Source: Escherichia phage EcSzw_1. Taken from it: DNA of 64,000 nucleotides. The notes beneath the pieces were generated by a model. The model did no database searches. It saw only the letters and a program-made list of their open reading frames with translations, and had not been told where the DNA came from. The position numbers and the translations under genes were made by a program. Below are positions 3,066-29,516 of the stretch, piece by piece; the stretch's first letter is position 1; the number at the start of each line of letters is the position of its first letter. The stretch lies in sequence record MH791413.1; one strand, given 5' to 3'.

Positions 3066-3117
3066 TTTGAATCTCCAGTTTAGGATTGATTTGGTAAATC
3101 TCTTTATCTGGGGCTAT
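3066..3117 (-). promoter_or_regulatory. Early promoter/leader cassette copy 4 (interrupted by N run 3118-3124)
   Basis: TTTGAATCTCCAGTTTAGGATTGATTTGGTAAATCTCTTTATCTGGGGCTAT then NNNNNNN. Confidence 0.4.
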
Positions 3118-3368
3118 NNNNNNNTAGTTTTCTTTGAGAAAATTAGTTTAACTGCAACCGTGGGAAGTTCTTCAATACTTGTAAAAAGCGTTACCTTTTG
3201 AGTAACAACCTTGTAACCATTTTTTGCAGCGTATGCCGTGAAACGATTAACCGTATAACTATAAGTTTTTGATGTGTTGTCTGACATATGGTACAAATAG
3301 GGCTTGCCTAAATTTTGAGATTGTGTTAACAGTCGGCAAGTATCAGGAACGTTTAAATAATTAAGCAT
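3114..3368 (-). CDS. Hypothetical small early protein (about 84 aa; 3' end obscured by N run)
   Basis: ORF in track; ATG at 3366-3368; C-terminal codons contain the N run. Confidence 0.4.
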   Translation of the reverse strand: MLNYLNVPDTCRLLTQSQNLGKPYLYHMSDNTSKTYSYTVNRFTAYAAKNGYKVVTQKVTLFTSIEELPTVAVKLIFSKKTXXX

Positions 3369-3453
3369 TTAGATTCTCCAGTTTAGGAAGTGGGATTGCT
3401 TGCCCGTCTGATAAGTAATTTAAGCTATTTAAAAACCAGTGTCAATAGATTTT
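3369..3453 (-). promoter_or_regulatory. Early promoter/leader cassette copy 5 (B-type)
   Basis: TTAGATTCTCCAGTTTAGGAAGTGGGATTGCTTGCCCGTCTGATAAGTAATTT; same B-type at 4211 and 6787. Confidence 0.4.
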
Positions 3454-3858
3454 TTAAAGTTCTGCGTAAATTGCATCACAGATATCACGAAAATCATAGC
3501 TTGTCAAGTTACGTTGTAACCATGTTGCGAAAAAATCAGCTATTGCAAAATTTGCATCATACTCAACAGATAACCACACTTTTACAGCAAATCGAAACAT
3601 TTTCAAGTCAAGTTCTTTATTCATTACTTTTGATTTGCCTAACATGTCAACCATTTCATATTGTGCGCCGTCAAGTGTAACACCTGATGCAACATTTGCA
3701 AGTGAATTTTTTACGCTTTCAACGTCTAAGATTGCACCTTGAATCTTTCCGATAATGTTATGCAGTGTTTCGTCTGGTGCTGCTGATGTAATTACGTTGA
3801 TGCGATTAACGGTCAAACGTGCTTTCAGGATTGCAGTGTCACGAGTATTCATAGCCAT
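3454..3858 (-). CDS. Hypothetical early protein (134 aa)
   Basis: ORF in track; ATG at 3856-3858 followed by cassette. Confidence 0.5.
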   Translation of the reverse strand: MAMNTRDTAILKARLTVNRINVITSAAPDETLHNIIGKIQGAILDVESVKNSLANVASGVTLDGAQYEMVDMLGKSKVMNKELDLKMFRFAVKVWLSVEYDANFAIADFFATWLQRNLTSYDFRDICDAIYAEL

Positions 3859-4916: not shown

Positions 4917-5006
4917 TTTAGAATCTCCAGTTTAGGATTGATTTGGTAAATCTCTTTATCTGGGGCTATNCTTATCAACCTGATAACCCCATGTAAAGCA
5001 ATTTAT
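4917..5006 (-). promoter_or_regulatory. Early promoter/leader cassette copy 8
   Basis: TTTAGAATCTCCAGTTTAGGATTGATTTGGTAAATCTCTTTATCTGGGGCTAT(N)CTTATCAACCTGATAACCCCATGTAAAGCAAT. Confidence 0.45.
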
Positions 5007-5519
5007 TTAGATATCAAAAATATTCATCATTAAATCTTTCAAGGCTTCTAAACGTTCCATGACTTCAGATTCTGCGTCTGCGTTGCTTACTTCCTCTTTT
5101 AGTCTATCCTCTAAATCGTCGCCGTCGCTATAGCACCAATCAAAGGCATATCCAAGATAAAAACTATCTAAAACCGTGTTTCCGTTTGCAGCTACAACTT
5201 TTGCAGATAGGCTATATTCTGAAGCCTCTAAATCCCTTTCTAGTTCTTTCTGTAAGCTGATGTAAGCCTCTCGTGATGGATTTTCCCGGCCTTGTTTTGC
5301 ATAGTCGCTAGAAAGCTGTTTAAGGCTATAGCGTAAAGGGATTGCATATTCAAATTCATTACGTTGATAGTTAGGATTCTTAATAGTTACCCCGCCTTGA
5401 TGGTTGTTTGTAAATTCCCAATCACTGATGTTATGGCTTGCTTCATAGCAGTTAACAGCTTCATATATGATAGAGAATTTCTCTTTTACAACTTCAAAGG
5501 TAGCGTCTACAGTTTTCAT
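5007..5519 (-). CDS. Hypothetical early protein (170 aa)
   Basis: ORF in track; ATG at 5517-5519 followed by cassette. Confidence 0.55.
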   Translation of the reverse strand: MKTVDATFEVVKEKFSIIYEAVNCYEASHNISDWEFTNNHQGGVTIKNPNYQRNEFEYAIPLRYSLKQLSSDYAKQGRENPSREAYISLQKELERDLEASEYSLSAKVVAANGNTVLDSFYLGYAFDWCYSDGDDLEDRLKEEVSNADAESEVMERLEALKDLMMNIFDI

Positions 5520-6579: not shown

Positions 6580-6786
6580 TTAAACGTCATAATAGTAAAT
6601 TGCAGTATGTCTAATATGCTTTCTTGTGTGAGTTGTCAAGTAACAATCTGAATTAATTGACGTGTTTACATATGTATCATAATCTTTCTCTGATATACGT
6701 TGCCACACATCACAAATTAGCATATAAAAGCGACGATGTTTAGTCTCAGTATTATCTACAATCATTAACTCACGTTGATATAACAT
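6580..6786 (-). CDS. Hypothetical small early protein (68 aa; start moved to ATG at 6784-6786)
   Basis: Track ORF starts at a TTG at 6834 inside the cassette. The ATG at 6784-6786 sits at the same distance from the TCTCCAGTTTAGG leader as in all other copies. Confidence 0.5.
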   Translation of the reverse strand: MLYQRELMIVDNTETKHRRFYMLICDVWQRISEKDYDTYVNTSINSDCYLTTHTRKHIRHTAIYYYDV

Positions 6787-6870
6787 TTTGAATCTCCAGT
6801 TTAGGAAGTGGTCTTGTTTGCCCGTCTGATGCAAATACTAAATAACTTTGTTTTGCAGGTCAAGCAAATT
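6787..6870 (-). promoter_or_regulatory. Early promoter/leader cassette copy 12 (B-type)
   Basis: TTTGAATCTCCAGTTTAGGAAGTGGTCTTGTTTGCCCGTCTGATGCAAAT. Confidence 0.4.
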
Positions 6871-6983
6871 TTTAAAAATATTTTCAGGAATTGCCAGAGA
6901 TGAACGGGCGCACGACTACCACAAAACATAGCACAAATCAAGAATTATTTTTCAGTTCTCTACAGATTTTTCTCTTGACTTTT

Positions 6984-7019
6984 GGGGAGAGGGGGAGTAA
7001 GAGGGGGAGAGGGGCAGGG
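6984..7019. repeat. G-tract cluster (GGGG, GGGGG, GGGGG, GGGG, GGG), potential G-quadruplex; C-rich on the transcribed minus strand
   Basis: TTTGGGGAGAGGGGGAGTAAGAGGGGGAGAGGGGCAGGGC read directly; compositionally unusual against the AT-rich surroundings. Confidence 0.5.
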
Positions 7020-7036
7020 CTGGCACTATCTACCTA

Positions 7037-7219
7037 CCTGCACAATTCTAAAATGATTTTTCTTGCCCGACACTCGCCGGGTCTGCACGTTTTGAAAATG
7101 AAAAATCTCTTTGGAGTCCACCTGCACAAATTGAAAATGAATTTTCCCTTTGGAGTTCAAAATTTTCTCTACAGATTTCTGTCCAGACTTTTACCTGCAC
7201 AATTTTAAAATGAAAAAGC
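7037..7219. repeat. Four direct repeats of a ~26 bp unit CCTGCACAAWTTNAAAATGAWWWWNC (starts 7037, 7082, 7121, 7194) plus two copies each of CTCTACAGATTT (6959, 7167) and CTTTGGAGTYCA (7108, 7148)
   Basis: Read directly from sequence; the only ORF across it (6891..7208 +) translates repeats and the G-tract. Confidence 0.55.
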
Positions 7220-7286
7220 CCTCCTTACCTGAAAATTTTACCAGATAAGAAAGGCTTAGTCTATTGTGAATATGCTACAGAGTTTC

Positions 7287-8069
7287 TTAGTTCTTTGCAG
7301 CTAAGAACTTGATGTTAGAAATGTCTACAATTGCTTCAGCATCTTTCTCATTTGCTGCAAGAATGTACACATCAGGTTCACTTCCAAATGTCACTGCACG
7401 TTGCATACTACCTTTCAACGGCGGGGTAACTTGAGCGTTACTTAGAGACATTCTCTCAACCGGAGGGTTACTCTGATGTACCTTGTTCTTACGATGCCTG
7501 AAGAGGATAACTCCGTCTTCGTTGACAACGGCTACCCCTGCAAAGTATTGTGGTTCACTGTGATTACCCCATGTTGACAGAGTACTAAACATTGCCTCTT
7601 CAAATACGTAAAGGTAAACATCAACATCTTTCAAGATGTGATTCATAATTACCACAACAGCTTTCGGGTCAAGTCCACCAATACCTGCACCAATCATTGG
7701 GAGACCAACTTTCTTCAGTTGATTCACTTTGCAGTACTGGCTAAGACTCAACAAAGCACTCTCAAGAGCATTGTAACGAGCATCTTTACCAGTCTTCAAC
7801 TGAGTGTATAGGTTAGCAATACGGCCTTGTTTAAGACGTGATACAGAGAGTTTACCAAGCAGTTTCTGACAAGGTTTATGCTCTCTTCCTCCTGCTACAC
7901 GGTAGACTTCGGCATCAGTTTCATAGGCTTTTGGGTAACCTTTAGAAATCTTGTAAGCAATACCTGCACCCATCAGGTTCATACAGTTGCAACCGTGACC
8001 AATGATATCAAACTTACCTTTTTCAAAGTCTGCGAAGATATCACCTTTGATGACTTTTACAATACCCAT
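7287..8069 (-). CDS. Macrodomain protein (ADP-ribose binding or hydrolase; TARG1/DarG-like signature) with uncharacterised C-terminal extension
   Basis: N-terminal VIKGDIFADF…DIIGHGCNCMNLMGAGIAYKI matches the GDxF … H-x-C … MGAGIA pattern of TARG1/OARD1-type macrodomains (from memory); about 110 aa C-terminal region unassigned. Confidence 0.65.
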   Translation of the reverse strand: MGIVKVIKGDIFADFEKGKFDIIGHGCNCMNLMGAGIAYKISKGYPKAYETDAEVYRVAGGREHKPCQKLLGKLSVSRLKQGRIANLYTQLKTGKDARYNALESALLSLSQYCKVNQLKKVGLPMIGAGIGGLDPKAVVVIMNHILKDVDVYLYVFEEAMFSTLSTWGNHSEPQYFAGVAVVNEDGVILFRHRKNKVHQSNPPVERMSLSNAQVTPPLKGSMQRAVTFGSEPDVYILAANEKDAEAIVDISNIKFLAAKN

Positions 8070-8070
8070 C

Positions 8071-8271
8071 TTACCATTTCTCCCATGATTCTTTATCTTC
8101 AGAAGGTTTTACACGTTGACCTTCATGGTCTACCCAGATTCCACCACAACCTTCACAGAGTGTTGGCATAGCATAGCCAGCTTTGAACTCTTCTTCAGAG
8201 ATAAGACCTCTCAAGTCTCCTGTATCACGTCCAAACAGTTCGATGGAACAATCTTTGCAGAAATCAGCCAT
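8071..8271 (-). CDS. Small zinc-ribbon protein (66 aa)
   Basis: CKDC … CEGCGG cysteine pairs; ATG at 8269-8271. Confidence 0.45.
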   Translation of the reverse strand: MADFCKDCSIELFGRDTGDLRGLISEEEFKAGYAMPTLCEGCGGIWVDHEGQRVKPSEDKESWEKW

Positions 8272-8491
8272 TTGATATTACCTCTTGGAAGAATGTACCT
8301 TTCAAATTCCATTCAGCTTTATAATCAGTCAATGTGTTAGTATCGAACATTGTATAATATTTGTAATCACCATTCTTAAACTGGTCATGCAGTGATGGGT
8401 TGCAGAACGGAGCTACTGTATCCCTGTCCAAGAATACAGCACCAGATAACACTTTGCGTGTATTTTTACACCTTACTAATATTGCTTTCAT
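8264..8491 (-). CDS. Hypothetical protein (75 aa)
   Basis: ORF in track, compact minus-strand array. Confidence 0.4.
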   Translation of the reverse strand: MKAILVRCKNTRKVLSGAVFLDRDTVAPFCNPSLHDQFKNGDYKYYTMFDTNTLTDYKAEWNLKGTFFQEVISNG

Positions 8492-8792
8492 AAAGTACCT
8501 TCTCTGTTAACTCGTACAAGTCTACATGTTCAATGCCAGCAATGTCAATACCAAGTTTAGCATATCGCTCTTTGATGCCTTCTTTATTTTGAAATATGAG
8601 ACACCAATGATTTCTTAAAGACTCTTCCAGTTTATCTACACAATCATGAAAGGTTGGTGTGTCACCTCTTGTACCAACCATTGCCACAACACCATAAAGA
8701 AACTCACCATTACCATATGTGACTTGTGCTACACCAATATCTTTCTCACTATCTTGGATGACAGCTACAAAGGTTTTACCGTTCAATTCCAT
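8466..8792 (-). CDS. Hypothetical protein (108 aa)
   Basis: ORF in track; ATG at 8790-8792. Confidence 0.45.
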   Translation of the reverse strand: MELNGKTFVAVIQDSEKDIGVAQVTYGNGEFLYGVVAMVGTRGDTPTFHDCVDKLEESLRNHWCLIFQNKEGIKERYAKLGIDIAGIEHVDLYELTEKVLYESNISKV

Positions 8793-8949
8793 CAGAGACT
8801 ACCTCTTCAATTTGTTGTAGAATTGCTTCTGAAGTTTCTTCCCACATCGTCATACTGTCAATATCACCACAACAACTTTCTCCAGCAACGTTGTAACGTG
8901 CTTGACCATATTCTTTGATGAGTTCAATCAACTTCTCTTTGCTTGACAT
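8776..8949 (-). CDS. Hypothetical small protein (57 aa, MSSKEKLIELIKEYGQARYNVAGESCCGD…), not in ORF track
   Basis: Hand-translated; ATG at 8947-8949 preceded by SD GAGGAAG; fills an otherwise gene-free gap; stop overlaps start of downstream gene. Confidence 0.4.
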   Translation of the reverse strand: MSSKEKLIELIKEYGQARYNVAGESCCGDIDSMTMWEETSEAILQQIEEVVSDGIER

Positions 8950-8950
8950 G

Positions 8951-9220
8951 TTACTTCCTCGTTTTGAGAACTGCCATAATTTCTTTGGTATCTTCTAAGA
9001 ACCATGTGTAGTGATTTTCTTTGATTTCTGGATGAGTGTCAATCTTTAATTTGCAATCTCTTCCAGTATCTTTCAGTTGAGTTGTGATACCCTTCATAAA
9101 GATATGGCACATCACATCATCCATAACCATTGGCATGAAGTCAATGCGCATGTAAGTATCTTTTGGTCTTGGAAGAAGTAAATAACCTTCTGTATAGAAC
9201 AGTTCTGTCTCTTGACTCAT
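8951..9220 (-). CDS. Hypothetical protein (89 aa)
   Basis: ORF in track. Confidence 0.45.
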   Translation of the reverse strand: MSQETELFYTEGYLLLPRPKDTYMRIDFMPMVMDDVMCHIFMKGITTQLKDTGRDCKLKIDTHPEIKENHYTWFLEDTKEIMAVLKTRK

Positions 9221-9486
9221 TGCTGCTTATTCCCTAACAAAATCATATCAATCAAATTATTGGCTTTCATCGTACACTGATAGTACCCATCACGATAAAA
9301 TTCAAGGGCTTGTGACAGGTCTGTGCCTGTATTACCCTTGACAACGTAGCGTGATTCTTCTTGAGTATACTTATCACTTTCACTTACTTGGGAGTTTTTG
9401 AACGTAGAGTTCACTTTGTTCATTGAACACCCTGACATAAGTATCAGTAGCACAAATGTTATAAAACTCTGGCTTAGTCTTTTCAT
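9217..9486 (-). CDS. Putative lipoprotein (89 aa)
   Basis: Signal peptide with lipobox-like LILMSGC at the N-terminus. Confidence 0.45.
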   Translation of the reverse strand: MKRLSQSFITFVLLILMSGCSMNKVNSTFKNSQVSESDKYTQEESRYVVKGNTGTDLSQALEFYRDGYYQCTMKANNLIDMILLGNKQQ

Positions 9487-9727
9487 ATGTCAATACCTCT
9501 TTTGTGTGTTTGTTTTTAGCAAGCACGTCTTTCAAATCATTTTTGTAACTGGAGCTAAGATTTGCTAAACCTTCTTGGTAAGCATCCTTAGCAACACTTA
9601 CAAGTTTCTGGTTAGTTAACTCTGTTTGAGTGACTTGGTAATCCTTGTAAGAATAACCCCCCCAGACACCTACACCAATCAGAAAAACAACTATGAAAGC
9701 GGCTTGACAGAACTCTTTAAATTTCAT
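9380..9727 (-). CDS. Hypothetical membrane-anchored protein (115 aa)
   Basis: N-terminal hydrophobic segment AAFIVVFLIGVGVWGG; overlaps 9217..9486 in another frame (one of the two may be shorter). Confidence 0.4.
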   Translation of the reverse strand: MKFKEFCQAAFIVVFLIGVGVWGGYSYKDYQVTQTELTNQKLVSVAKDAYQEGLANLSSSYKNDLKDVLAKNKHTKEVLTYEKTKPEFYNICATDTYVRVFNEQSELYVQKLPSK

Positions 9728-9740
9728 TTGTCAATCTCCT

Positions 9741-9768
9741 AAAACGAAAAAGGCTCCCGAAGGAGCCT
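9741..9768 (-). terminator. Rho-independent terminator (UUCG tetraloop hairpin plus U-tract on minus-strand RNA)
   Basis: GGCTCC-CGAA-GGAGCC at 9752-9767 preceded on the plus strand by AAAACGAAAAA (U-tract on minus). Confidence 0.55.
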
Positions 9769-9779
9769 GTATCATAACC

Positions 9780-10244
9780 TTAACCGAGGACTTTAGCAAG
9801 GACATTTGCAGCCATCGTCGAAGCTTTTGCAGCAGCAGCTACGCCAGCTTTGATAGTGCTATCCTTAATGGCAGATACCGTTGCAGCATCAGTAAAGAGA
9901 TATGTGGTAGTTTGTGAACCACTTGTAAAGGAAAGCATAAGAGCAGTTTCCAGATTGAAAGAACGGTACGGAGCACCGGACTGTACAATTCCTTTAGCAC
10001 CCAACTCTGAAGCCATACCCATGTCATAGATGGTCATCAGATTTTCTTTATGTGCTGTAGTAGAACCGACACCTTTAACGTGTTTTGAAACGTTCAGCAG
10101 AGCACGATATTCACGGATATCACCATCAGCTTTTACGTTGACAGCACGAAAGATTTTGCCATCAAAGTTGCTTTTAATGATATCACGAACAACCTGTGAT
10201 TTGTTTGCTGATGCGTCGATAGCTACTGTAATAATGTTTTGCAT
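9780..10244 (-). CDS. Hypothetical protein (154 aa)
   Basis: ORF in track followed by terminator. Confidence 0.5.
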   Translation of the reverse strand: MQNIITVAIDASANKSQVVRDIIKSNFDGKIFRAVNVKADGDIREYRALLNVSKHVKGVGSTTAHKENLMTIYDMGMASELGAKGIVQSGAPYRSFNLETALMLSFTSGSQTTTYLFTDAATVSAIKDSTIKAGVAAAAKASTMAANVLAKVLG

Positions 10245-10256
10245 GATTTCTCTCTC

Positions 10257-10952
10257 TTAGTGTTTGATAAGCATTGTGTTAATTTCTGGAAGGATTCGTT
10301 TAACCTTCTCAACATTCCTTACTGTATCTTCTATAAAACATACTACATCATAGTACGGAAGAATGCAAGACTGAATCATACGAACTTTCAAACTTTCTGC
10401 ACTGATTCTATTTGAACCAAAACCACGCATAAAAAGCATGTAGTCAGTCACGATATGCTTGTCAATAAACAAATGGGTTGGTACACGTTGAGACTCACCA
10501 CGAGCAGTTAAAACACCGATTGCAGCACTTTTATGGATGCCTGAAATGATATTAAAGATGTACGTAGGTTGTGCATCAACTGACTCAATCAAGTTTGTAT
10601 ACTGTGACAGAGTGCCATCTTCCAGATATGTTGAGTTTGTTGGCTTATCAAACTTAGTGAGAACACCATCAATATCTGTTAAAACCATTGGCTTCTTCAT
10701 ATCAAGGTCTTTTGCAACCAAGATTAAGCTGTCACGTTTAACGGCTACTGACTTACCTGTTTGAAGGTCTGTACAGAGAACTGTTTCAGCAGATGAATGA
10801 AAGTCTTTGAAGTCACATTCAACAGCCCTTGCAGTATCTGCAAAGTCTTCTTTCATAAGGTCTGTCCAGCTTGCAGCACTGATATCTATAGCCAGAGGGT
10901 TGATATCGTAAGCGTGACAAAATACCTTATCCAATTGTTTTAATTCGCTCAT
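10257..10952 (-). CDS. HAD-superfamily hydrolase (putative nucleotidase or phosphatase)
   Basis: HAD motif I LTDIDGVLT; track start is a TTG at 10994; ATG at 10950-10952 with upstream AAGG chosen. Confidence 0.55.
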   Translation of the reverse strand: MSELKQLDKVFCHAYDINPLAIDISAASWTDLMKEDFADTARAVECDFKDFHSSAETVLCTDLQTGKSVAVKRDSLILVAKDLDMKKPMVLTDIDGVLTKFDKPTNSTYLEDGTLSQYTNLIESVDAQPTYIFNIISGIHKSAAIGVLTARGESQRVPTHLFIDKHIVTDYMLFMRGFGSNRISAESLKVRMIQSCILPYYDVVCFIEDTVRNVEKVKRILPEINTMLIKH

Positions 10953-11478
10953 GTTTAACCTTTTTGATGTTTGTTGCAAACTCACATTGAGCAAGCACCT
11001 TCATGTTATTGTACACATCTTGAGAGTATTGTCTAGCTTTCGGAATACGGTATGAATAACCTGCATTGTATGAAGCTAAGACACGCTGTAAAGAGTATTT
11101 CCCATTAGGATTACCATGAACCTTAGTCCAGAACTGAAGCTCTTTGTGTGTCTCCTTTGCAGCATAATCGAAGTCTCTGATAAGTTTCTTCTTAGCTACG
11201 TTTGGGTTAACTTTGTTACGCTTTACAACAGTCTTCAAGTGATTCTGGAACAAACCATAATCGTGAGTCTTTTTATTTTCAAGACGAAGACCTAACTCTG
11301 ACTCTTGTAAGGCTATAGCGGCTAAGGTTAATCCCCAACCTTTACCCATCTCTTTCTCACCGTAGTGATAAGCTTTAAGCATGTTTGTTTTCTGACTGAT
11401 GGATAACTCTGGACAGTCTGAAGCGACTGCCAAATGTGCTGTTAAGAATAAGCACAAACCTAAAATGAACTTCTTCAT
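10927..11478 (-). CDS. Lytic transglycosylase (SLT domain) with Sec signal peptide
   Basis: Signal peptide MKKFILGLCLFLTAHLAVA; SLT motifs QESELG, YGLFQ, SYNAGYS. Confidence 0.6.
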   Translation of the reverse strand: MKKFILGLCLFLTAHLAVASDCPELSISQKTNMLKAYHYGEKEMGKGWGLTLAAIALQESELGLRLENKKTHDYGLFQNHLKTVVKRNKVNPNVAKKKLIRDFDYAAKETHKELQFWTKVHGNPNGKYSLQRVLASYNAGYSYRIPKARQYSQDVYNNMKVLAQCEFATNIKKVKHERIKTIG

Positions 11479-11535
11479 TGGTTCTCCTGTTTAGTTCAAC
11501 ATACAAGCAATTATACACTACTCTGCACAAAACAC

Positions 11536-11565
11536 AAATAAAAAAGGCTGCCGAAGCAGCCCTTT
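11536..11565 (-). terminator. Rho-independent terminator downstream of rIIB
   Basis: GGCTGC-CGAA-GCAGCC at 11546-11561 with A-tract 11536-11545 on the plus strand (U-tract on minus). Confidence 0.6.
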
Positions 11566-11578
11566 AAGAATTTACTTA

Positions 11579-12688
11579 TCAGATTTCACGTTTACGCTGA
11601 GAAATAAGTTCACCAGCAGTGCCTACAACAACATGCAGTGCTTCAGATTTGCCATCCCACTCTTTGACAACCTGACGCTGACCATTCACGATTGCTGCAA
11701 CTTCATAACGGGAAGCTCGCATTTTCATATCTTGATAGTCAGTTGGTACAGATACAACGTCTCGTGGATGTACACGAACTTTCAGGATAGTATCACCAGA
11801 GAAGCTACGTACATAATCCCAAGCACCAACGTGCAGACCTTGAGAGCAAGTTACTGTACGGTCATTATCAACCATCCAGCGTGGCATCTCTACAACGTTA
11901 CCCAAATCATTAGGAACTTTGCATGTACGGGAGTCAAACAGCTTACCACCACGAGTTGTAACTTTCTTCCAACCGATGATATAACCTTCTTCATCAATCT
12001 CAACATCGAGGTGAGACACAAAACCCCAAAGTTGTTCTACAGAATCTTTGGATGGGTTTTCCATCAGTTTTTCGAAGAATGCTACCAGACGTTTAAAGCC
12101 ATCATCACCAACTTTCATCATGTCCAGAATACGGTCTACCAGAGTGGAGCGCATTTGAACAGCACCGTAGTACAGGTTATCACCTTTGATAGTGATTGCA
12201 CCCTGAGTGAAGTTCTCGATAGACTTACGAATGTTCATCAGTTCGAAAGCTTTCTTGTACTCACCACCTACAACAGCCATCACGATTTCTTTGTAGTTCG
12301 GATGGGTAGATTCAACGATTTCAGAATCTGCACCGAAAGTCATGATGACAGAATCACCAGTAATCATGTACTCAATCTGGTTGCCATTCTGCATCGCTTC
12401 ATGCAGTTGGTTAACAGGTTCCTTCTTCACTGCCTCTTTAACAGCCTTGGCAACTGGCTTAGTAGCCGTCTTCTTAGCAGACTTTGCAATCTGTTTCAGA
12501 GTCTGCTTAGCTGACTTAGAAGATGCTTTCTTAGCACCTTTCAGTGTTGCTTCGTGACGTTCTACAGCACGACCAACGGAACGAGTAGAAGTGTTATACT
12601 TCATTGCAATGGCAGTTTTGGTCAGTTTACCTTCCTGAACCAGTGCGTAGATTTCTGCGTCGATTTGTGCTTTAGTTTTAGTAGTCAT
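11579..12688 (-). CDS. rIIB: rIIB-like protein
   Basis: Immediately downstream of the rIIA-like GHKL ATPase gene, size about 370 aa; assignment by synteny and size, not by recognised motif. Confidence 0.45.
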   Translation of the reverse strand: MTTKTKAQIDAEIYALVQEGKLTKTAIAMKYNTSTRSVGRAVERHEATLKGAKKASSKSAKQTLKQIAKSAKKTATKPVAKAVKEAVKKEPVNQLHEAMQNGNQIEYMITGDSVIMTFGADSEIVESTHPNYKEIVMAVVGGEYKKAFELMNIRKSIENFTQGAITIKGDNLYYGAVQMRSTLVDRILDMMKVGDDGFKRLVAFFEKLMENPSKDSVEQLWGFVSHLDVEIDEEGYIIGWKKVTTRGGKLFDSRTCKVPNDLGNVVEMPRWMVDNDRTVTCSQGLHVGAWDYVRSFSGDTILKVRVHPRDVVSVPTDYQDMKMRASRYEVAAIVNGQRQVVKEWDGKSEALHVVVGTAGELISQRKREI

Positions 12689-12737
12689 CTTATTACTCTC
12701 TCTTGTTAGTTAATATTACTTAGTGGTTCGTATTCTA

Positions 12738-12755
12738 AGGGGCTTTTCAGCCCCT
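12738..12755 (-). other. Intergenic GNRA-tetraloop hairpin between rIIA and rIIB (no U-tract)
   Basis: AGGGGCT-TTTC-AGCCCCT on plus (GAAA loop on minus RNA). Confidence 0.4.
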
Positions 12756-12767
12756 GTCAAACTGTTT

Positions 12768-15134
12768 TTAATCGAAAGCCTGAGTTCCTTCAGGAATGCA
12801 CTTAACATCAAATCCTAAGAACTGACCAACTTCAACAGGACTTACTTTATTCCAGTCTAAGTTAGAAAGCAAGAAGTTTTCTGCTTTACGTGCTGTGAAG
12901 TACACATTCAACTTCTGCTTAATACGTTCTCTTGCATTGTAGATTGCAGAGTGTACCTTACTCTTAGCTCTTGTCAAGCGTTGTAAGTCATGCAGAACAC
13001 TTGTAACGTCCTTATAAGCAATCGGTGAAGCGACATAAGCCAGCTTACCAAACATTGCTTCTACAGCATCTTCATTCCCTTCCAAGAAGATACGTTTGCT
13101 GTAATCAGTACTGTAGACATAACCTCTTGAGCACTTCTTATCACCAAACTGGAACGTTCTTGCAATAACACCTTTATCAGTGATATCACAGTTTGAACTA
13201 CACCATTCACGAGTTACAAAGCGGTTAAACTCAATCCAGTGAATGTCAGTGATAGAATCTTTGAAGACTTGCTGATTCACCTCTAACCAGTCTTCAGGGA
13301 TTTTCTTCCAGTTTGCTTTACGGAACACATAAACTGACTGTCCAGTTAAACGTGCCATAACCTTTGCAGCAGACTCTGGAGTGCAACTAAAAATTCCACC
13401 AAGGACTTCATCACTCTGTGCTTTGATATAATACTGAGGTTCTTCAATATCATCAAAGTTTTCTTTCACTTCTGTATAAGATACACCGTGTTCATGTACA
13501 GAAGCTTTGTAGAGTTTTACAACACCACGAGTAACAGTACGCTTCACATAGTGGTGTTCTTTGTCAGACATTTTAACAATCGTCAACAGACTCTTATCAA
13601 GCATGTGAAGATTGATAAACTGGTCTAACTCTTGCTCATCAGAGAACATGTAAACAATGCCGTTGTAGCGACGGAAGTTTGGTTCTTCATTTTCACGGTC
13701 ACGGCAAGCACCACGAATAATCTGATTACGTCCTACAGTCTTTTCAGTACCATTTTTGTTTCGACGGTCATTGATAAGGAACAAATAGTTAGACATTTTG
13801 TTCTTACTCATTGCACCGAAGATACTGAAGTTTGCACCTTCCTGAGTGTACATCGCTGAAGTTGCACGAATCTTGTTTTCCAGTTGGTTATACTTGAAGT
13901 AAGCAACAGGCTCATAAAGATTCCCAATAACAGGAATGTGATTACCGCTCTTATCAACAAGTAAAGCCCCTGAGTCATCAGTTGCAAACTTTGGAGTACC
14001 ATCTGGGTTGCTCAAATGCCCTTGACGAATCTTTAAAAGTTTCTGTTCAAGGTCTGCTAAGTTCTGACCATTCCACTCAAGGCGAGTAAACACATGCTGG
14101 AAGATTTCACGAGAATTAGCTCGTAAGTCTGCATAAGCCTGTGCAGCGTCTGCCAAGGTTGGTTCGTTGTCAATGCGTTTTACCACATCTTCTACAATCG
14201 TTGCAGTAATCTTTTTAACTGCGTCTGTAATAGCTTGCTTAGTGGTTTCATTCATCTGCAATGCTTCACGAGATGCGGCAATAGCCACTGAACCAATAGG
14301 CATGTAGATATTAACAAGGTCTACAGCATTACGGAAGAATGTAGGAAGTACATTGGTGAACTCTGCACCAAGTAAGTCTCCTAAGTCAACCGGATAAGCA
14401 ATGTTACCCATGACAACGTTGAAGTTTGTCTGGTTATTACTTGAACGCCAGTTCTCTTTATACTTCATCGCATCGTAAACACCATCTTCACGTACAATGG
14501 TAGTCATCTCGCTAAGAATATCACGGTATTCTACGTTGCATTCTGGCTTCAATTTGAAGTAAGAGAATACATTGCTCGCTTCTTCATGAAACTTCTGAAT
14601 ACGGTGGTCAGCTACTGCAACACGAACTGCTAAACCATTTGGTTCGGTAGTCGGGTTGGTCGTCAGTTTAGTAACTTGAGGGATACCATTCTCAAGATAT
14701 ACAGAGTACTTGTTAACTACGCCGTCTACGTAGCTGGACACGGTGAATGACTGTGCAATTGCAAAAGGTGACTTTGAACCGATACCCATAGCACCGATGT
14801 AGTCATTTGAGTCATTCTTAGTAGAAGCTCCATAGTTCAGGTACAGAGACATAACCTTCTCATGGGTCAGACCAGTACCGAAGTCACGAACTTCAAAGTA
14901 TGGGTCAAAACGAGTTGGCAGGTGTACACGGAATGGTACATTCTCTTTTCCAGCTTCTTTGTGAGTATCTACAGCATTACAAGACAACTCACGAATTACA
15001 GCACGTTCTTTAAAAGTGTAAACACCTGAACTTAACAGGCTGAACATTTCAGGGGTCATCGTGATAGATGCCTGAGAAGTTTCTAATGAAGATGAACTCT
15101 TAATCACCTCTGCGTGGTCATTTACCATGCGCAT
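12768..15134 (-). CDS. rIIA: rIIA-like protein with N-terminal GHKL (histidine-kinase-like) ATPase domain
   Basis: GHKL motifs IRELSCNAVDTH (N box), VRDFGTGL (G1), GAMGIGSKSPF (G2); 788 aa; followed by rIIB-sized gene. Confidence 0.65.
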   Translation of the reverse strand: MRMVNDHAEVIKSSSSLETSQASITMTPEMFSLLSSGVYTFKERAVIRELSCNAVDTHKEAGKENVPFRVHLPTRFDPYFEVRDFGTGLTHEKVMSLYLNYGASTKNDSNDYIGAMGIGSKSPFAIAQSFTVSSYVDGVVNKYSVYLENGIPQVTKLTTNPTTEPNGLAVRVAVADHRIQKFHEEASNVFSYFKLKPECNVEYRDILSEMTTIVREDGVYDAMKYKENWRSSNNQTNFNVVMGNIAYPVDLGDLLGAEFTNVLPTFFRNAVDLVNIYMPIGSVAIAASREALQMNETTKQAITDAVKKITATIVEDVVKRIDNEPTLADAAQAYADLRANSREIFQHVFTRLEWNGQNLADLEQKLLKIRQGHLSNPDGTPKFATDDSGALLVDKSGNHIPVIGNLYEPVAYFKYNQLENKIRATSAMYTQEGANFSIFGAMSKNKMSNYLFLINDRRNKNGTEKTVGRNQIIRGACRDRENEEPNFRRYNGIVYMFSDEQELDQFINLHMLDKSLLTIVKMSDKEHHYVKRTVTRGVVKLYKASVHEHGVSYTEVKENFDDIEEPQYYIKAQSDEVLGGIFSCTPESAAKVMARLTGQSVYVFRKANWKKIPEDWLEVNQQVFKDSITDIHWIEFNRFVTREWCSSNCDITDKGVIARTFQFGDKKCSRGYVYSTDYSKRIFLEGNEDAVEAMFGKLAYVASPIAYKDVTSVLHDLQRLTRAKSKVHSAIYNARERIKQKLNVYFTARKAENFLLSNLDWNKVSPVEVGQFLGFDVKCIPEGTQAFD

Positions 15135-15192
15135 AATAACTTTCCTCTTGGGTTGTTTGATGCAGAGACTTTAAAGAACTCTGCACCGATTG

Positions 15193-15375
15193 TCAATTGT
15201 TTTCGTTATGTTTCTTTCCAGTTCCACCACAATAAGGGCAGCAACCATAACTTACCAGACCTGTACCGTCGCAATCTTCACACTCTTCTGCACCGAAGTA
15301 GTGTTTAGCCAGAAGGTATCCAATTACAATCAGGCCACCAAATGACAGGATTAACTCTAACCAATAACCTTGCAT
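15193..15375 (-). CDS. Small membrane protein with DnaJ-type zinc finger (2x CxxCxGxG), 60 aa
   Basis: N-terminal TM helix LELILSFGGLIVIGYLLA then CEDCDGTG … CPYCGGTG. Confidence 0.45.
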   Translation of the reverse strand: MQGYWLELILSFGGLIVIGYLLAKHYFGAEECEDCDGTGLVSYGCCPYCGGTGKKHNENN

Positions 15376-15692
15376 AACTTCTCTCCAACATGTTTGTACA
15401 GGATGAAACTACGGTCATGAACAATACTTGAGGCAACTGCAAAGTTCTCTTCCAGTATTGCTTTGTTCGGATTATAGAATCCGTCTAAGAATTGGTCAAG
15501 TGCTAATTGGTGATTTTGTGGAAGACCTTTAACATAAATCTTCATAGAAAGCGTGGCAACCACTTCACCTTGAAGTTCATCTCGTGCTGCTACCAAGATT
15601 TGGTTAATGAACTTGTGACCATCTTCAGGACGTTTAATGTCATCCCAATTCTCTTCCAAGACCATATTGATATTCATCTGTTTGATTTTCAT
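15357..15692 (-). CDS. Hypothetical protein (111 aa)
   Basis: ORF in track; ATG at 15690-15692. Confidence 0.45.
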   Translation of the reverse strand: MKIKQMNINMVLEENWDDIKRPEDGHKFINQILVAARDELQGEVVATLSMKIYVKGLPQNHQLALDQFLDGFYNPNKAILEENFAVASSIVHDRSFILYKHVGEKLCKVIG

Positions 15693-15705
15693 AACATTCT
15701 CCAGA

Positions 15706-15731
15706 AATTAAAAAGGCTCCCGTAGGAGCCT
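15706..15731 (-). terminator. Rho-independent terminator downstream of the NAMPT-like gene
   Basis: GGCTCC-CGTA-GGAGCC at 15715-15730 with A-tract on plus (U-tract on minus). Confidence 0.55.
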
Positions 15732-15745
15732 CTTATAATACTTAT

Positions 15746-17572
15746 TTAAAGCTGTCTGTCAATAACATTTCGTACATCACGAAGGTTAACGTAGCCATAT
15801 GGCTGAGAGTCGCAGAATACCAGCTTCAGAGCACACTGAGGGTTATCCAGTACACTTTCAAACTCTGCAAAACCAAAGCCATCCACAGCTTCCAGCTTAT
15901 CACCATCCCACATAGGGACTACACCACCAAAAGCAGACTTCTTAAGACCACTGTCAGTTTTAGGGTCTTTTGCCAGCATGATTTCTTCACCATCCATCTG
16001 TGCAAGAGTTGCTTTAACAGCAAATGCAAAGGTATCACGAGTCATGTACTGGTAAGTGTATGAACCAACACCGAAGACAACGTTAGAACTTGCAAAGCCC
16101 TTTTCAGCAAGACGGCTAAGAATCTCTTCAGCACGTTCCAGAGTGATAGAATCACCGTAGATTAAACCAATGTGTTCATCAAGAACTTTGTAGCCTTTAG
16201 AGTTTACAGCGCCACCAAAAATGTTGTACAGAGTCTTGATAGCACCATCAATTTCTGCTGTCAGCATTGGTTTAACAACAACTTGACCAGTCTTGTAAGT
16301 ATCTTTCAGGTTAACTGTATCAGCAACGTTAAAGTCTTCTGCATCAACAACCAACTCATAACCTTCAGAGATTAGCCAAGCAGAGAAGCCATAGCCCATA
16401 TCTGACATGTTGCAATTAAGGATTGCATCAAGCAGATAAGTATTGTTAGGAGAAATGGTTGACATGTGTTTGTAATACATGCTCTTAGCATTTTCCCATT
16501 CAATTGCACGATAGCCAGTAACAATGTGTACAGGGTCACCGGAATCTGGACGGATTACCAGTTTACCATCACGTTTCAGGATTACTTCACGGAGTTCTGG
16601 AAGAATCTCTGTAACTGTACGCCAGAAGTTGTAAGTATCGGACACAACACTTGCAATACCAGTTGGGTAAACATCTACCAGCAGGTGTTCAAATGTTTTA
16701 ACCTCACCACGCCAGCGTTTAGCATCCAGCAAACTATCAGACTGCATGATGTACTGTGAGTGAATGTCATCTTCTGTCAGGTCTTTCATATTCCATGAAA
16801 TGTTTGCACACATCACAGAGTGTTCAGTTGCTGGAACAGAGTTACCAATATCACTTACAGTCATGAACTGACCATATGCACGTTTAGCAGTATACACAGC
16901 AGGGAAGCTATCAGTACCTTTAAAGCTTGTCAGGTGACCTACAGCATTGAAAGCATCATCTGTGAATCCAGACATACCACGCATTGCAAAGTCGTGACAC
17001 TGCCAAGGAAGATGGAAGTCATTGTCACAGGTCTTATCAGACCAAGATTTACAGATACGTTTGTAATGCAGTGCAATAGTTGCAATGGTACAAGCTTTCC
17101 AGATTTCAGCAGAGAAAGCATCTTCCAGATAACCAGCTACCCAATGGAAGCCCTCAACGGTATTTTTGAAGATAATCATTGGAACACGCATAGGAACGAT
17201 TGTGCCTTCTTCAACAGAGTACACTGCAACTGGCAGATAGCCTAAGTCGTGAAGTTCTTCCCAATGATGACGCTTGATAGCATCTGCACCGAGAACACCA
17301 TTCATGATTTCCAAGATNTCATCAACAGCTTCTTTCTTATCACGTTCGAAGAAAGTTGCATTCCAATGGTCTACTAAGTAATCTTTAACGAAACGTTGGA
17401 TACCAAAAGCAACTACACCGTCAGTCTCCAAAGGAGTGTTAAACCACTTATTACCACGAGGTGTAAGGTTCAGCATCAGGTGCTGAGTTGTACTTGGGTA
17501 CTGGTAGATGTGACCAGCTTTGTAAGCATCTGCGTTAAGACCTGCTGGAACTGCATAGATTGATTTAGACAT
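15746..17572 (-). CDS. Nicotinamide phosphoribosyltransferase family protein (NadV/NAMPT-like; candidate Namat of NARP1)
   Basis: 608 aa; N-terminal NADAYKAGH resembles the NAMPT DSYK-x-x-H signature; adjacent to PRPP-synthetase-family gene; N at 17318 gives one X. Confidence 0.7.
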   Translation of the reverse strand: MSKSIYAVPAGLNADAYKAGHIYQYPSTTQHLMLNLTPRGNKWFNTPLETDGVVAFGIQRFVKDYLVDHWNATFFERDKKEAVDXILEIMNGVLGADAIKRHHWEELHDLGYLPVAVYSVEEGTIVPMRVPMIIFKNTVEGFHWVAGYLEDAFSAEIWKACTIATIALHYKRICKSWSDKTCDNDFHLPWQCHDFAMRGMSGFTDDAFNAVGHLTSFKGTDSFPAVYTAKRAYGQFMTVSDIGNSVPATEHSVMCANISWNMKDLTEDDIHSQYIMQSDSLLDAKRWRGEVKTFEHLLVDVYPTGIASVVSDTYNFWRTVTEILPELREVILKRDGKLVIRPDSGDPVHIVTGYRAIEWENAKSMYYKHMSTISPNNTYLLDAILNCNMSDMGYGFSAWLISEGYELVVDAEDFNVADTVNLKDTYKTGQVVVKPMLTAEIDGAIKTLYNIFGGAVNSKGYKVLDEHIGLIYGDSITLERAEEILSRLAEKGFASSNVVFGVGSYTYQYMTRDTFAFAVKATLAQMDGEEIMLAKDPKTDSGLKKSAFGGVVPMWDGDKLEAVDGFGFAEFESVLDNPQCALKLVFCDSQPYGYVNLRDVRNVIDRQL

Positions 17573-17592
17573 GTTTTAATCTCTCTCAAAGT

Positions 17593-17608
17593 GGGGCTTT
17601 GCAGCCCC
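17593..17608 (-). other. Intergenic GNRA-tetraloop hairpin between Prs-like and NAMPT-like genes
   Basis: GGGGCT-TTGC-AGCCCC; no U-tract on the minus strand, so not a clear terminator. Confidence 0.4.
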
Positions 17609-17617
17609 TGATTAATT

Positions 17618-18499
17618 TTAGTAAATGTTTGCTACAGTTACTTGACCGAAATGAGTCAGACCACGGTCTTTTGCACTACCTAAAGAGTCTGTAGTGTAGA
17701 TGTGTGAAATCCCATTGTCAAGCAGGTTTTCAACACCTTTTGAGAAAATACCATGTGTTACATACAGTTCAACTTTAGCTGCTCCAGCTTCACGAAGATA
17801 CTTGGCTGCTTCAATGAATGTACGACCACCATCACAGATATCATCAATGATGAGTACAGTTTTACCAGTCAGGTCTACATCATCCAGTAGACGCATACCT
17901 GTAATCTCACCAGTCTTCAGGTCTCGAACCTTAGCCATTGTAACGTAAGGCTTATCAACCTCTTTAGCCGTCTCTGCAATCTTCTTAGCTGCTCCTGCAT
18001 CTGGTGCTACCAAGAAATCAATGGTAGGCTCACTGGCATAGTGTGCTGCAACATCTTTTTGATGGATGTTCTGGAAGCATTTGAACAGGTTATCTGCAAC
18101 GTCACTGTGGGCGTCTAGAGCACATACTGCATCAAAACCCATTGCATTGACCAGATTAGCAAACACCTTTAGTGCTGCTGCATCACCTTTAAATATGTGA
18201 CGGTCATAGCGAGCATTTGGCAGATAAGCAAAGATGACAGTTTTCATAGTTGCTTGCTGAGGAATCATTTTGTCGATTGCCTCTTTTGCCAGAGCTAAAG
18301 CAAACAATGTGTCTTTGTCATAACCCTGTACAGTGAAGATGACGTTCTCAATCTGGGAAGCATTCTCTTCAGCATAGATTACTAAGTCTTCAGAGAAGTT
18401 ACCACCAATTTCTCCAGACGGGAACTGGATAATGTTGAACTCTTCTTGGTGAGCACCTTTTTTCTGTGAGTGCAACAGTACGCTAATAATAGTTTTCAT
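17618..18499 (-). CDS. Ribose-phosphate pyrophosphokinase family protein (Prs-like; candidate Adps of NARP1)
   Basis: PRPP-binding loop VLIIDDICDGGRT; 293 aa. Confidence 0.75.
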   Translation of the reverse strand: MKTIISVLLHSQKKGAHQEEFNIIQFPSGEIGGNFSEDLVIYAEENASQIENVIFTVQGYDKDTLFALALAKEAIDKMIPQQATMKTVIFAYLPNARYDRHIFKGDAAALKVFANLVNAMGFDAVCALDAHSDVADNLFKCFQNIHQKDVAAHYASEPTIDFLVAPDAGAAKKIAETAKEVDKPYVTMAKVRDLKTGEITGMRLLDDVDLTGKTVLIIDDICDGGRTFIEAAKYLREAGAAKVELYVTHGIFSKGVENLLDNGISHIYTTDSLGSAKDRGLTHFGQVTVANIY

Positions 18500-21602: not shown

Positions 21603-23744
21603 TTACATAGATTTTCTGTCACGAATTTCAGCAATCTTCGCATCATTCATTCTTGAAGTTCCCTTGATTTTTGTCCACCCAAGGTAACCACAAACACGGT
21701 TAATGACTGAGATATCATGTGAATGGCACTTAGGACACTCTTCGACGTCTGCATTAGGACGATGACCACAATTCTCACAGATTGCTAAGTCAAAGTTAAC
21801 ACCTTGGTAGAATCCTTTCCCCATACCTCTTGAGACACAAGCCCTGATAGCTTTATGGTTCTCTGGGTTAGCCAGACGTACATACTGGATATGCCCACCA
21901 TTACAGCTATGGAACAGAGGTTCTTCCAAGTCTTGCTTCTGATACGGAGTAATATCTGCTGCAACGTTCATATGGAAGCTGTTAGTGAAGTATTCTTTAT
22001 CAGAAACATCTTTCACAACACCGAACATATTACGGAACTGCTTCAATTGCGTACCACAAAGGCTCTCAGCAGGTGTACCGTAAAGGGCATACAAGAAGCC
22101 ATCTTGCTCTTTAAAGTACGCCAGACGGTCATTCAGGTAGTCCAGAACTTGCTGTGCAATCACTTTCTGAGACTCATGCAGTCTACCTTCTCCAGCCAGC
22201 ACAGAGAGTTCATCAAGTGCAGTTACACCGAAAGAAGCTGTGAAGGATTTCACGGTATCCCAACCAATCTTGTCAGTTGGCTTCTTATCTCCTTTGTACA
22301 GGCCACCTTGTGTAAAGGCCAGAGGGTTTGAACTTGCTGGCATGTTAGCAATCATCTCATAGCGTTTTTTGTGGAAGCTACGAATCATTTCAAGGTATTT
22401 ATCAAGCTCTTTCCAGAAGTCTAAACCGTTCTCTTTAGCATACTGGTAAATCATTGGCAAGTTCAAAGATACTGCACCAATATTTGCACGACCAACGTAG
22501 AACTCTTCCCCATTTTCATCATAGTATGGAGATAGGAAAGCTCGACAACCCATCGGTGAAATCACCTTACCAGAACGTTCAAAAGCTTCTGCGACAGCAC
22601 CATGACCGGATACACTCAAGAAGTCTGGGTACATTGCTTTAGAGCAACACTCAATAGCTTTATTGTACAGTTGGCCTTGACAGATATCTTCGCTGTGTCT
22701 TGTATGGTCATGGATGTAAACCAGTTTAGGGAACACAACAGGTTTCTTGTTCTTACCTTGACCATTCATACGAACATCAAGAATAGTGTTTGCAATCATA
22801 TACTGAAGACGGTTATCTTCATCAGCCATATCTGAACCAAGTAAACCAAATGTTAGAGTTGTGAATGCAAAGTCACCACGGCTGCAAGGTACAGTATTCA
22901 GCTTCATCTCCAGTGACTGAAAACCTTGAGTTAGTTCAATCTGTAGCTGTTCCATTACATAATTGTAGTAATGTTCTTTTGGAATCCCATAAGAAGTTGC
23001 TTTCTCAGCATGGTAGCGTAAAGACTTCTTAGCATACGGTACGAGAACCTTATCAATCTCTGGGATTGTGAAGCCACCAAATTGCTGTGCAGTTGCTGAT
23101 AACACAACATCACCAATAACCTGTAAAGCTGACAGAACAGACTTAGGTTCACAGTATTCAATACCGGACATTTCAAAGCCACCTTTCAGGACTTTACCAA
23201 TGTCAAATAGGCAACAGTTAATACCACCAAATACCAAATCTCTCAGGTCGTGAATGTAGATGAAACCTGCTTCAATAGCTTCAAGTTCTTCTGGTGTCAA
23301 GTGATACTGCTTAAAGATTTCTTTAGTCAGGTATCCACGAATGATAGAACCTTTTGTAGAGATTAAGCTACTGTCAAAGTTAGCATTCTCACGGTCACCT
23401 AAGAAGAGGGTATCTTTGGTCTTCTGATAGAGTTCATCCCAATTCTGTGCAACCTCTTTACGATAGTTACGATAGGTTGAATAAGATTCATAAATCTCGT
23501 GATTAACTTCTGCTAAAGCCCCTTCAACAATGCTGTGAATGTCATCTACAGAAATCAGCAAAGCATTCTGGTTAGAAGCCTTTACAAGAATCCGCATAAA
23601 AGCTGACTCAAGAGCATGAACAACTTCTAATGGGAGTTCTTTATAGCCAACTCGGTTAGCTGACTTTGTAACTGCTGCTAGGACTTTCTTAATATCTGGT
23701 TCTTCAAGTGAGCCATTCTTTTTAATAATTTGTACTTTGACCAT
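21603..23744 (-). CDS. nrdD: Anaerobic ribonucleoside-triphosphate reductase (class III)
   Basis: C-terminal glycyl-radical motif RVCGYLG plus Cys-rich zinc site CENCGH … CPKCH; N-terminal ATP-cone; start moved from track to ATG at 23742-23744. Confidence 0.85.
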   Translation of the reverse strand: MVKVQIIKKNGSLEEPDIKKVLAAVTKSANRVGYKELPLEVVHALESAFMRILVKASNQNALLISVDDIHSIVEGALAEVNHEIYESYSTYRNYRKEVAQNWDELYQKTKDTLFLGDRENANFDSSLISTKGSIIRGYLTKEIFKQYHLTPEELEAIEAGFIYIHDLRDLVFGGINCCLFDIGKVLKGGFEMSGIEYCEPKSVLSALQVIGDVVLSATAQQFGGFTIPEIDKVLVPYAKKSLRYHAEKATSYGIPKEHYYNYVMEQLQIELTQGFQSLEMKLNTVPCSRGDFAFTTLTFGLLGSDMADEDNRLQYMIANTILDVRMNGQGKNKKPVVFPKLVYIHDHTRHSEDICQGQLYNKAIECCSKAMYPDFLSVSGHGAVAEAFERSGKVISPMGCRAFLSPYYDENGEEFYVGRANIGAVSLNLPMIYQYAKENGLDFWKELDKYLEMIRSFHKKRYEMIANMPASSNPLAFTQGGLYKGDKKPTDKIGWDTVKSFTASFGVTALDELSVLAGEGRLHESQKVIAQQVLDYLNDRLAYFKEQDGFLYALYGTPAESLCGTQLKQFRNMFGVVKDVSDKEYFTNSFHMNVAADITPYQKQDLEEPLFHSCNGGHIQYVRLANPENHKAIRACVSRGMGKGFYQGVNFDLAICENCGHRPNADVEECPKCHSHDISVINRVCGYLGWTKIKGTSRMNDAKIAEIRDRKSM

Positions 23745-29289: not shown

Positions 29290-29516
29290 TAAACCTCCTG
29301 AAACAGTTTCTGCTGAGACTCAATATAATCCAGTCGGCCTTTCAGTTCAACACGTTTGTTAATCAGGTGCTGAATCTGGGACTCAAGAGCCTCCATTTCG
29401 GACTCCGTAGCTTCTTTAGCTTTGACAATTGCATCTTTCAGTGCTGCAATGTGACTGTCAATCTTAGCTACGTGGTCATTATTAATTTTGTTAAATATCA
29501 TCTTATTCTCTCTCAT
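29289..29516 (-). CDS. Small coiled-coil protein (75 aa)
   Basis: Heptad-like charged sequence; ORF in track. Confidence 0.4.
   Translation of the reverse strand: MRENKMIFNKINNDHVAKIDSHIAALKDAIVKAKEATESEMEALESQIQHLINKRVELKGRLDYIESQQKLFQEV

Follow-up and report, generated by a model that had tools for sequence, protein, structure and literature searches.

NARP1, a phage route back to nicotinamide adenine dinucleotide (NAD+), was discovered in the Felixounavirus Bas63, where it comprises genes 79-80 and where deletion of the pair leads to SIR2-HerA sensitivity and abolishes both the formation of ADP-ribose pyrophosphate (ADPR-PP) and the reconstitution of NAD+ (bioRxiv 10.1101/2024.02.11.579819). 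The RES-domain defence aRES converts NAD+ into nicotinamide and ADP-ribose (ADPR)-1''-phosphate, a product unusable by NARP1; 15% of NARP1 operons include a Macro gene, Adpp, encoding an enzyme that turns ADPR-1''-phosphate (ADPR-1''P) into ADPR, and the pathway restored in this way is named NARP1-AP (bioRxiv 10.64898/2026.01.28.702374). The evidence for NARP1-AP comes from work on Vibrio phage Gary that included the enzyme in purified form and an H24A mutant, with a survey that ranged over genes within two genes of NARP1 only; Table S1 of that paper contains no Escherichia, Salmonella, Shigella or Erwinia phage, and aRES homologues are listed in genomes of Escherichia, Shigella and Salmonella, the hosts of these phages (bioRxiv 10.64898/2026.01.28.702374). 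In phage T4, the gene tk.4, renamed adfM, was identified by HIDEN-SEQ as required for growth on DarTG2 hosts (bioRxiv 10.1101/2025.11.20.689424). Here we examine positions 7287-18499 of a 64,000-nucleotide stretch of Escherichia phage EcSzw_1 (MH791413.1), the whole of which is referred to as the window, where a NARP1 pair is accompanied at a distance by a gene encoding a macro domain protein.

The minus strand carries all genes of this 11.2-kb region. The first-pass annotation had listed macrodomain, HAD, rIIA/rIIB and Prs-like/NAMPT-like genes, and family scans recover each of them where it had been placed. The features central to the analysis are as follows:

17618..18499, minus strand: Adps, PRPS-like ADP-ribose pyrophosphate synthetase, first enzyme of NARP1 (Pfam Pribosyltran and Pribosyl_synth)
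15746..17572, minus strand: Namat, NAMPT-like nicotinamide ADPR-transferase of 608 aa, second enzyme of NARP1 (Pfam NAPRTase and NAMPT_N)
7599..8069, minus strand: Poa1p-like macro domain, residues 1-157, candidate Adpp/AdfM-type enzyme (Pfam Macro, Poa1p match)
7290..7601, minus strand: orphan C-terminal domain of the same protein, residues 157-260, beta-strand-rich (confident structure prediction)

Our preferred reading, to which we give a probability of roughly 0.5, is that EcSzw_1 carries a dispersed form of NARP1-AP, in which a stand-alone Poa1p-like macro enzyme would feed ADPR to NARP1 when hosts use RES-type NAD+ phosphorylases. Adps would pyrophosphorylate ADPR to ADPR-PP, and Namat would join ADPR-PP with nicotinamide to give NAD+ after depletion by host NADases. 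The macro enzyme most likely hydrolyses ADP-ribose bearing a C1'' substituent, the main candidate substrate being the ADPR-1''P produced by aRES, with thymidine-linked ADP-ribose placed on DNA by DarT2 as a possible second substrate. Either reaction would release free ADPR, in the DarT2 case as expected from what is established for hydrolysis by DarG/TARG1-type enzymes. Because metabolites diffuse, ADPR released in this way could be used by NARP1 without operon linkage, and the phage would thus carry NARP1-AP in trans.

The NARP1 assignment itself is established, since the genes are orthologues of those studied by experiment in Bas63: the Prs-like/NAMPT-like pair, which the earlier annotation had already named NARP1, corresponds to this described system, with 78% identity between Adps and Bas63_0079 and 74% between Namat and Bas63_0080. 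The two genes are adjacent on the minus strand with a 45-bp gap. Escherichia phage EcSzw-2 (MH791400), which shares 100% identity with the 11.2-kb region by Megablast, is already in the published NARP1 list, with MH791400_00033 as Adps and MH791400_00032 as Adps-associated Namat (Osterman 2024 supplement, bioRxiv 10.1101/2024.02.11.579819). Adps matches PRPS structures at E 8e-20 and holds the motifs AKVRDLKTGE and IIDDICDGGRT, consistent with the described Lys185 and Asp212/213/216 at the level of motifs rather than of a residue-level alignment. Namat matches PDB 9w5w, an entry that the paper on the SpBetaL1 Namat structure cites, at E 2.6e-122 versus ~1e-39 for mammalian/human NAMPT, scores that place it with the Namat type rather than the NAMPT type. 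Relative to the 496-aa SpBetaL1 Namat (9w5w) it contains two insertions, at residues 258-289 (16706-16801) and 355-441 (16250-16510). An ambiguous base, N, is present at 17318 in Namat codon 85 (GAN), and the GenBank record is flagged UNVERIFIED.

The macro gene (7287-8069; Pfam Macro PF01661, E 2.7e-8) encodes a two-domain product of 260 residues. The yeast ADPR-1''-phosphatase Poa1p is the top PDB sequence match of the macro domain, and an AlphaFold2 model (predicted local distance difference test score 87.6) places TARG1, DarG and Poa1p equally near in Foldseek (E 1e-9 to 2e-8). The domain aligns end to end with the Adpp of Vibrio phage Gary (30% identity, E 2e-17), and it gives its best pairwise score among characterised relatives with T4 Tk.4 (40% identity over 134 aa, E 2e-24), located at 4923-5390 of the compared T4 stretch; Tk.4 and Gary Adpp are 35% identical to each other (E 2e-23). 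The catalytic His of the family (Gary H24, Poa1p H23) corresponds to H25 in the window protein, and H25, N28 and Q90 are common to all family members. Since Tk.4, Gary Adpp and the window protein are mutually similar and hold the same conserved residues, Adpp and AdfM are, on these alignments, one protein family, and sequence does not separate an Adpp role from an AdfM role for the window macro protein. The Tk.4 orthologue of the T4-like phage slur02 shares 39% identity with Gary Adpp and all of the conserved residues. In the neighbour-joining tree, the two-domain proteins of Ounavirinae form one clade (99% bootstrap) and the Tk.4 proteins another (100%); operon-linked Adpp proteins are scattered over several clades, and deep nodes lack support.

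For the C-terminal domain no relatives were detected outside these proteins. A word-indexed search with the domain alone gave no match, no structural relative was recovered apart from the SUSP2 orthologue in BFVD, and an HMMER scan of all 1.84 billion representatives detected the domain only in these two-domain proteins; three long HMMER hits to it were rejected as compositional artefacts. The two-domain form occurs in ~264 phage records. The macro protein of Bas63, bas63_0095, is 69% identical to that of the window. In the 147-kb Escherichia phage alia, the macro homologue alia_66 (2752-3468 of the compared alia stretch) has an N-terminal extension of ~83 residues in place of the C-terminal one and lies ~81 kb from the alia Adps gene.

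The first-pass annotation had proposed comparing the co-occurrence of macrodomain and NARP1 genes with chance, and the comparison, made for macro and Adps, came out in favour of an association. Records were counted by tblastn over 50,697 phage records, which were not dereplicated, and intersections were derived by inclusion-exclusion with a chimeric macro+Adps query. The macro domain matched 2793 records, Adps 1563 and the chimeric query (the union) 3437, giving ~919 records with both genes versus 86 expected under independence (odds ratio ~36). Among Adps records the overlap amounts to 59%, among macro records to 33%; an evenly spaced sample of chimeric-query rows reproduced the former figure, with a macro match in 16 of 27 Adps-bearing rows. 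NrdG served as the control, being an unrelated accessory gene that is found about as often (2264 records); it shared ~520 records with Adps, or 33%, for an odds ratio of ~13.5. By host, Adps records that also carry macro number 175 of 177 for Escherichia, 74 of 75 for Klebsiella, 177 of 195 for Pseudomonas and 85 of 164 for Vibrio; among Klebsiella Adps records, NrdG is found in 3 of 75. For Salmonella, apparently all 122 Adps records have macro, although the calculation yields 126, which marks the counts as only approximate, and essentially no Adps records of Staphylococcus or Mycobacterium have it. Lineages with both genes include Ounavirinae, Pseudomonas phages of 92-99 kb, myoviruses of 134-147 kb (e.g., Escherichia phage alia) and other large phages of enterobacteria. 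The association is above chance and above the control gene, and it extends over several lineages.

Several observations weigh against a dispersed NARP1-AP. The best-scoring characterised relative of the macro domain, Tk.4/AdfM, is an anti-DarTG2 factor from a phage without NARP1, and none of the published Adpp proteins has the C-terminal domain of the window protein. Adps is missing from about 67% of the records with macro, mostly those of T4-like phages, and, as the NrdG control makes clear, a large share of the co-occurrence stems from common lineage and genome type. Macro and NARP1 are also near-universal within Ounavirinae and therefore offer no natural loss for a covariation test; an apparent 84-kb relative with macro and without NARP1, KKP_3262, proved to be a partial T4-like record and not a member of Ounavirinae. 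Lastly, the macro gene lies 15 genes (7.7 kb) away from Namat, and three terminator-like hairpins, all of them conserved, intervene. The hairpins of the region, GC-rich and followed by a T-run on the coding strand, all fall in intergenic gaps:

15711..15734, minus strand: terminator-like hairpin and T-run right after the Namat stop codon, bounding the NARP1 unit (identical hairpin at the same place in Bas63)
11542..11565, minus strand: terminator-like hairpin after rIIB (position conserved in Bas63)
9751..9768, minus strand: terminator-like hairpin upstream of the spanin genes (conserved in Bas63)
7216..7257, minus strand: long terminator-like hairpin after the macro gene, where the leftward unit ends (near-identical hairpin at the corresponding position in Bas63)

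These terminator calls, which are consensus predictions and not transcript data, argue for at least four transcription units in the block and place the macro gene outside the NARP1 unit, in another predicted transcription unit. The hairpins at 15711-15734, 11542-11565 and 9751-9768 have near-identical stems of the AGGCTCC-NNCG-GGAGCCT type, the one after Namat being identical in sequence in Bas63 and the others slightly different, and they look like a reused terminator module. The only opposite-strand open reading frame nearby, at 6900-7208 on the plus strand, converges on the macro gene and has only a weak match to a PHROG of unknown function; the 7216-7257 hairpin between the two, with a 17-bp stem, could be a bidirectional terminator. 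A literature search for Felixounavirus transcriptomes returned nothing usable. A coupling of macro and NARP1 is plausible and the macro enzyme a putative supplier of ADPR. The first-pass annotation had suggested that ADPR released by the macrodomain feeds NARP1, and this idea holds in part: NARP1-AP has been shown in other phages (10.64898/2026.01.28.702374) and the window macro protein is a full-length homologue with the catalytic His, but the published substrate is ADPR-1''P and not ADP-ribosylated proteins.

Of the alternatives, the one that survives best is that the macro protein is solely an AdfM-type anti-DarTG2 factor, which would remove or neutralise the ADP-ribosylation of phage DNA by DarT2 in the way proposed for T4 Tk.4, and that it has no functional link to NARP1 and a position that reflects conserved synteny; we regard this as a possible but rather unlikely account. 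It agrees with the score against T4 Tk.4, the knockout of which sensitises T4 to DarTG2, yet the proven ADPR-1''P phosphatase Gary Adpp is itself so similar to Tk.4 that the two roles are inseparable by sequence, and the enzymatic mechanism of AdfM is inferred in its preprint (bioRxiv 10.1101/2025.11.20.689424). DarG models match the macro domain (NCBIfam E 1.3e-12, PADLOC E 1.3e-13) and DarG macrodomain structures are among its top fold matches; however, the models cover only the macro part (positions 3-149 of 338), the C-terminal DarT-binding domain of DarG is absent, and the catalytic Lys and Asp of TARG1/DarG are missing from the family, the positions of TARG1 K84 (which we take to be equivalent to DarG K80) and D125 being occupied by Q90 and G131 in the window protein. 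The missing Lys was considered as an argument excluding an anti-DarT role and was dropped, because T4 AdfM also lacks it. The predicted separation of the macro gene from the NARP1 unit fits an AdfM-only role, as does the distribution of the two genes, since T4-like phages have macro without NARP1 and Escherichia phages account for 995 macro versus 177 Adps records; against this, macro is present in nearly every enterobacterial and Klebsiella NARP1 phage, above the control gene.

A broader proposal, which we put forward tentatively and hold to be doubtful, would merge the two roles. Poa1p-like phage macrodomains may constitute a single dual-purpose "ADPR-1''-X hydrolase" that dephosphorylates ADPR-1''P, reverses DNA ADP-ribosylation by DarT2 and might salvage breakdown products of the labile ADPR-PP, with ADPR released for NARP1 each time. 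Under this proposal ~59% of NARP1 phage records (versus 15% by operon proximity), including Bas63 and all Ounavirinae, would run NARP1-AP in trans, and the orphan C-terminal domain would tune the choice of substrate or target.

It is also conceivable, though improbable, that no coupling to defence exists and that the macro enzyme clears ADPR-1''P or related by-products of RNA metabolism in a Poa1p-like housekeeping role, perhaps together with the HAD protein in RNA end-healing, within a block of ordinary early-gene synteny. The HAD gene is as follows:

10257..10952, minus strand: kinase-less PNKP-type HAD phosphatase (HAD motifs, Pnkp1 profile match)

A weak HAD_PNKP match (E 0.003) is found in 10257-10994, and HAD motifs I-IV (DIDGV, LTARG, K189, ED209) are invariant across six orthologues; the N-terminal ~90 residues are poorly conserved and have no assignment. 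A PDB search with the single sequence gave nothing useful, and a profile search reached nothing but the phosphatase domain of Pnkp1, an RNA-repair enzyme (4xrp, E 3.5e-4), the sole structural relative of the HAD protein. The housekeeping role draws on this match, on Poa1p being the closest solved relative of the macro domain by sequence, and on the conservation of the macro and HAD genes together in the lineage. The HAD protein, however, contains no GxxxxGK[ST] (Walker A) motif and hence no P-loop 5'-kinase domain, the annotation of the window includes no RNA ligase, Tpt1 or cyclic phosphodiesterase, and both experimentally studied members of the phage macro family show counter-defence phenotypes. 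HAD is restricted to Ounavirinae-like phages (301 records by tblastn), and because of this restriction it provides no independent co-occurrence test.

The remaining genes and the setting of the region bear on the weakest of the alternatives. EcSzw_1 belongs to the genus Suspvirus of the subfamily Ounavirinae, and by Megablast the 11.2-kb region shares 95-96% identity with the Suspvirus phages EP1, mistaenkt and SUSP2 and ~79% with many Felix O1-like phages. The other assigned genes are:

12768..15134, minus strand: rIIA (phrog_612, E 7e-181; annotated in relatives)
11579..12688, minus strand: rIIB (phrog_609, E 9e-86)
10927..11478, minus strand: SLT-like protein (Pfam SLT E 3.8e-4, slightly under the curated cut-off; phrog_600, unknown function)
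9380..9727, minus strand: i-spanin, Rz-like (phrog_1152, E 6e-38; annotated as i-spanin in mistaenkt and Bas63)
9217..9486, minus strand: o-spanin, Rz1-like, overlapping the i-spanin gene (weak phrog_456; annotated as o-spanin in mistaenkt and Bas63)

rIIA and rIIB are a classical T4-type assignment, spanins are lysis genes, and both pairs have established roles of their own. The small genes at 8071-10244 that had been called unassigned are indeed present, but two of them can now be assigned as the Rz/Rz1 spanin pair. There is no evidence linking HAD, rIIA/B or the spanins to the NAD+ route. The GC content of the block (0.38-0.42) is the same as that of its flanks, without an island signature, and the block is a section of a ~37-kb co-directional run of replication and nucleotide-metabolism genes. 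The order Adps-Namat ... rIIA-rIIB-(SLT-like)-HAD ... Macro is kept in four metagenomic contigs, where the macro proteins are 33-40% identical, and the order Adps-Namat...rII...HAD...Macro is likewise present in Bas63. The gene order is ancient and represents conserved core synteny rather than an acquired island; the region is a portion of a long conserved leftward early/middle gene array of an Ounavirinae phage, so that the dedicated island proposed in the first-pass annotation is not supported, and its single metabolic route was overstated. That proposal in its literal form, in which the macro protein strips ADP-ribose from proteins and acts with HAD and rIIA/B as one metabolic island returning ADPR to NAD+, is very improbable: all the genes do lie on one strand inside 11 kb, macro hydrolysis releases ADPR and NARP1 uses ADPR, but the residues with which de-MARylating enzymes of the TARG1 type catalyse are missing from the family, the lineage-restricted HAD is PNKP-like, the rII and spanin genes have other roles, at least four transcription units are predicted with the macro gene 15 genes off in a different one, and ADPR released from proteins would be small relative to NADase output and would not carry the matching nicotinamide-pool problem that NARP1 solves.

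Elsewhere in the window, the gene annotated in GenBank as "putative NAD synthetase" (EcSzw2_52; 29503-30003, minus strand) is really a SegE-type GIY-YIG homing endonuclease (Pfam E 3e-27), a misannotation that could misdirect searches for NAD+-related genes; it adjoins an HNH endonuclease gene at 30000-30524. The nrdD gene of the window (21603-23744) is uninterrupted, unlike that of Bas63 (6631-9517 of the compared Bas63 stretch), which is annotated as two joined pieces flanking a homing endonuclease gene. NARP3 (PnuC/NadR) was also considered and has no relation to the genes here.

If the distant macro enzyme does serve NARP1, resistance to RES-type NAD+ phosphorylases would be ~4x commoner among NARP1 phages than the operon-based count, Bas63 included. 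The analysis points to a wider spread of NARP1-AP than has been counted. In large virulent phages whose early arrays are long and conserved, surveys limited to "within N genes" overlook members of a pathway. Two preprints of 2025-26 gave one protein family different counter-defence roles, Adpp against aRES and AdfM against DarTG2; in the texts examined, neither mentions the protein of the other. The dispersed NARP1-AP reading yields a sharp and cheap prediction in the model phage Bas63.

With NARP1-AP of phage Gary, the window has in common a Poa1p-like macro domain that keeps the catalytic His, in a phage that also encodes a NARP1 system; it differs in the distance of the macro gene from Namat, in its placement in another predicted transcription unit, and in the size of the protein, Adpp being a single domain of 150-165 aa and the window protein having 260 aa with the orphan C-terminal domain. 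A survey reaching no more than two genes from NARP1 would not count this macro gene, because it lies 15 genes from Namat. The likeness to T4 Tk.4/AdfM consists of a stand-alone macro gene in the early region, away from NAD+ genes, and the same H/N/Q residues; T4, however, is without NARP1, Tk.4 consists of one domain only (155 aa), and the Ounavirinae macro proteins form their own 99%-supported clade outside that of Tk.4. The fold is common to yeast Poa1p, whose H23 equals H25, and to the TARG1/DarG clade, in which the catalytic Lys/Asp of TARG1 are replaced here by Q90 and G131 and from which the DarT-binding domain of DarG sets the window protein apart by its absence. The HAD protein shares its phosphatase motifs with T4 polynucleotide kinase-phosphatase and Pnkp1 but not their P-loop kinase domain. 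Closest of all is NARP1 of Bas63 and SpBetaL1, with orthologous adjacent genes in the same order and orientation and no material difference in the window; Bas63 Namat likewise has ~100 extra residues relative to SpBetaL1 Namat, in insertions common to both phages apart from a 15-residue gap within the first.

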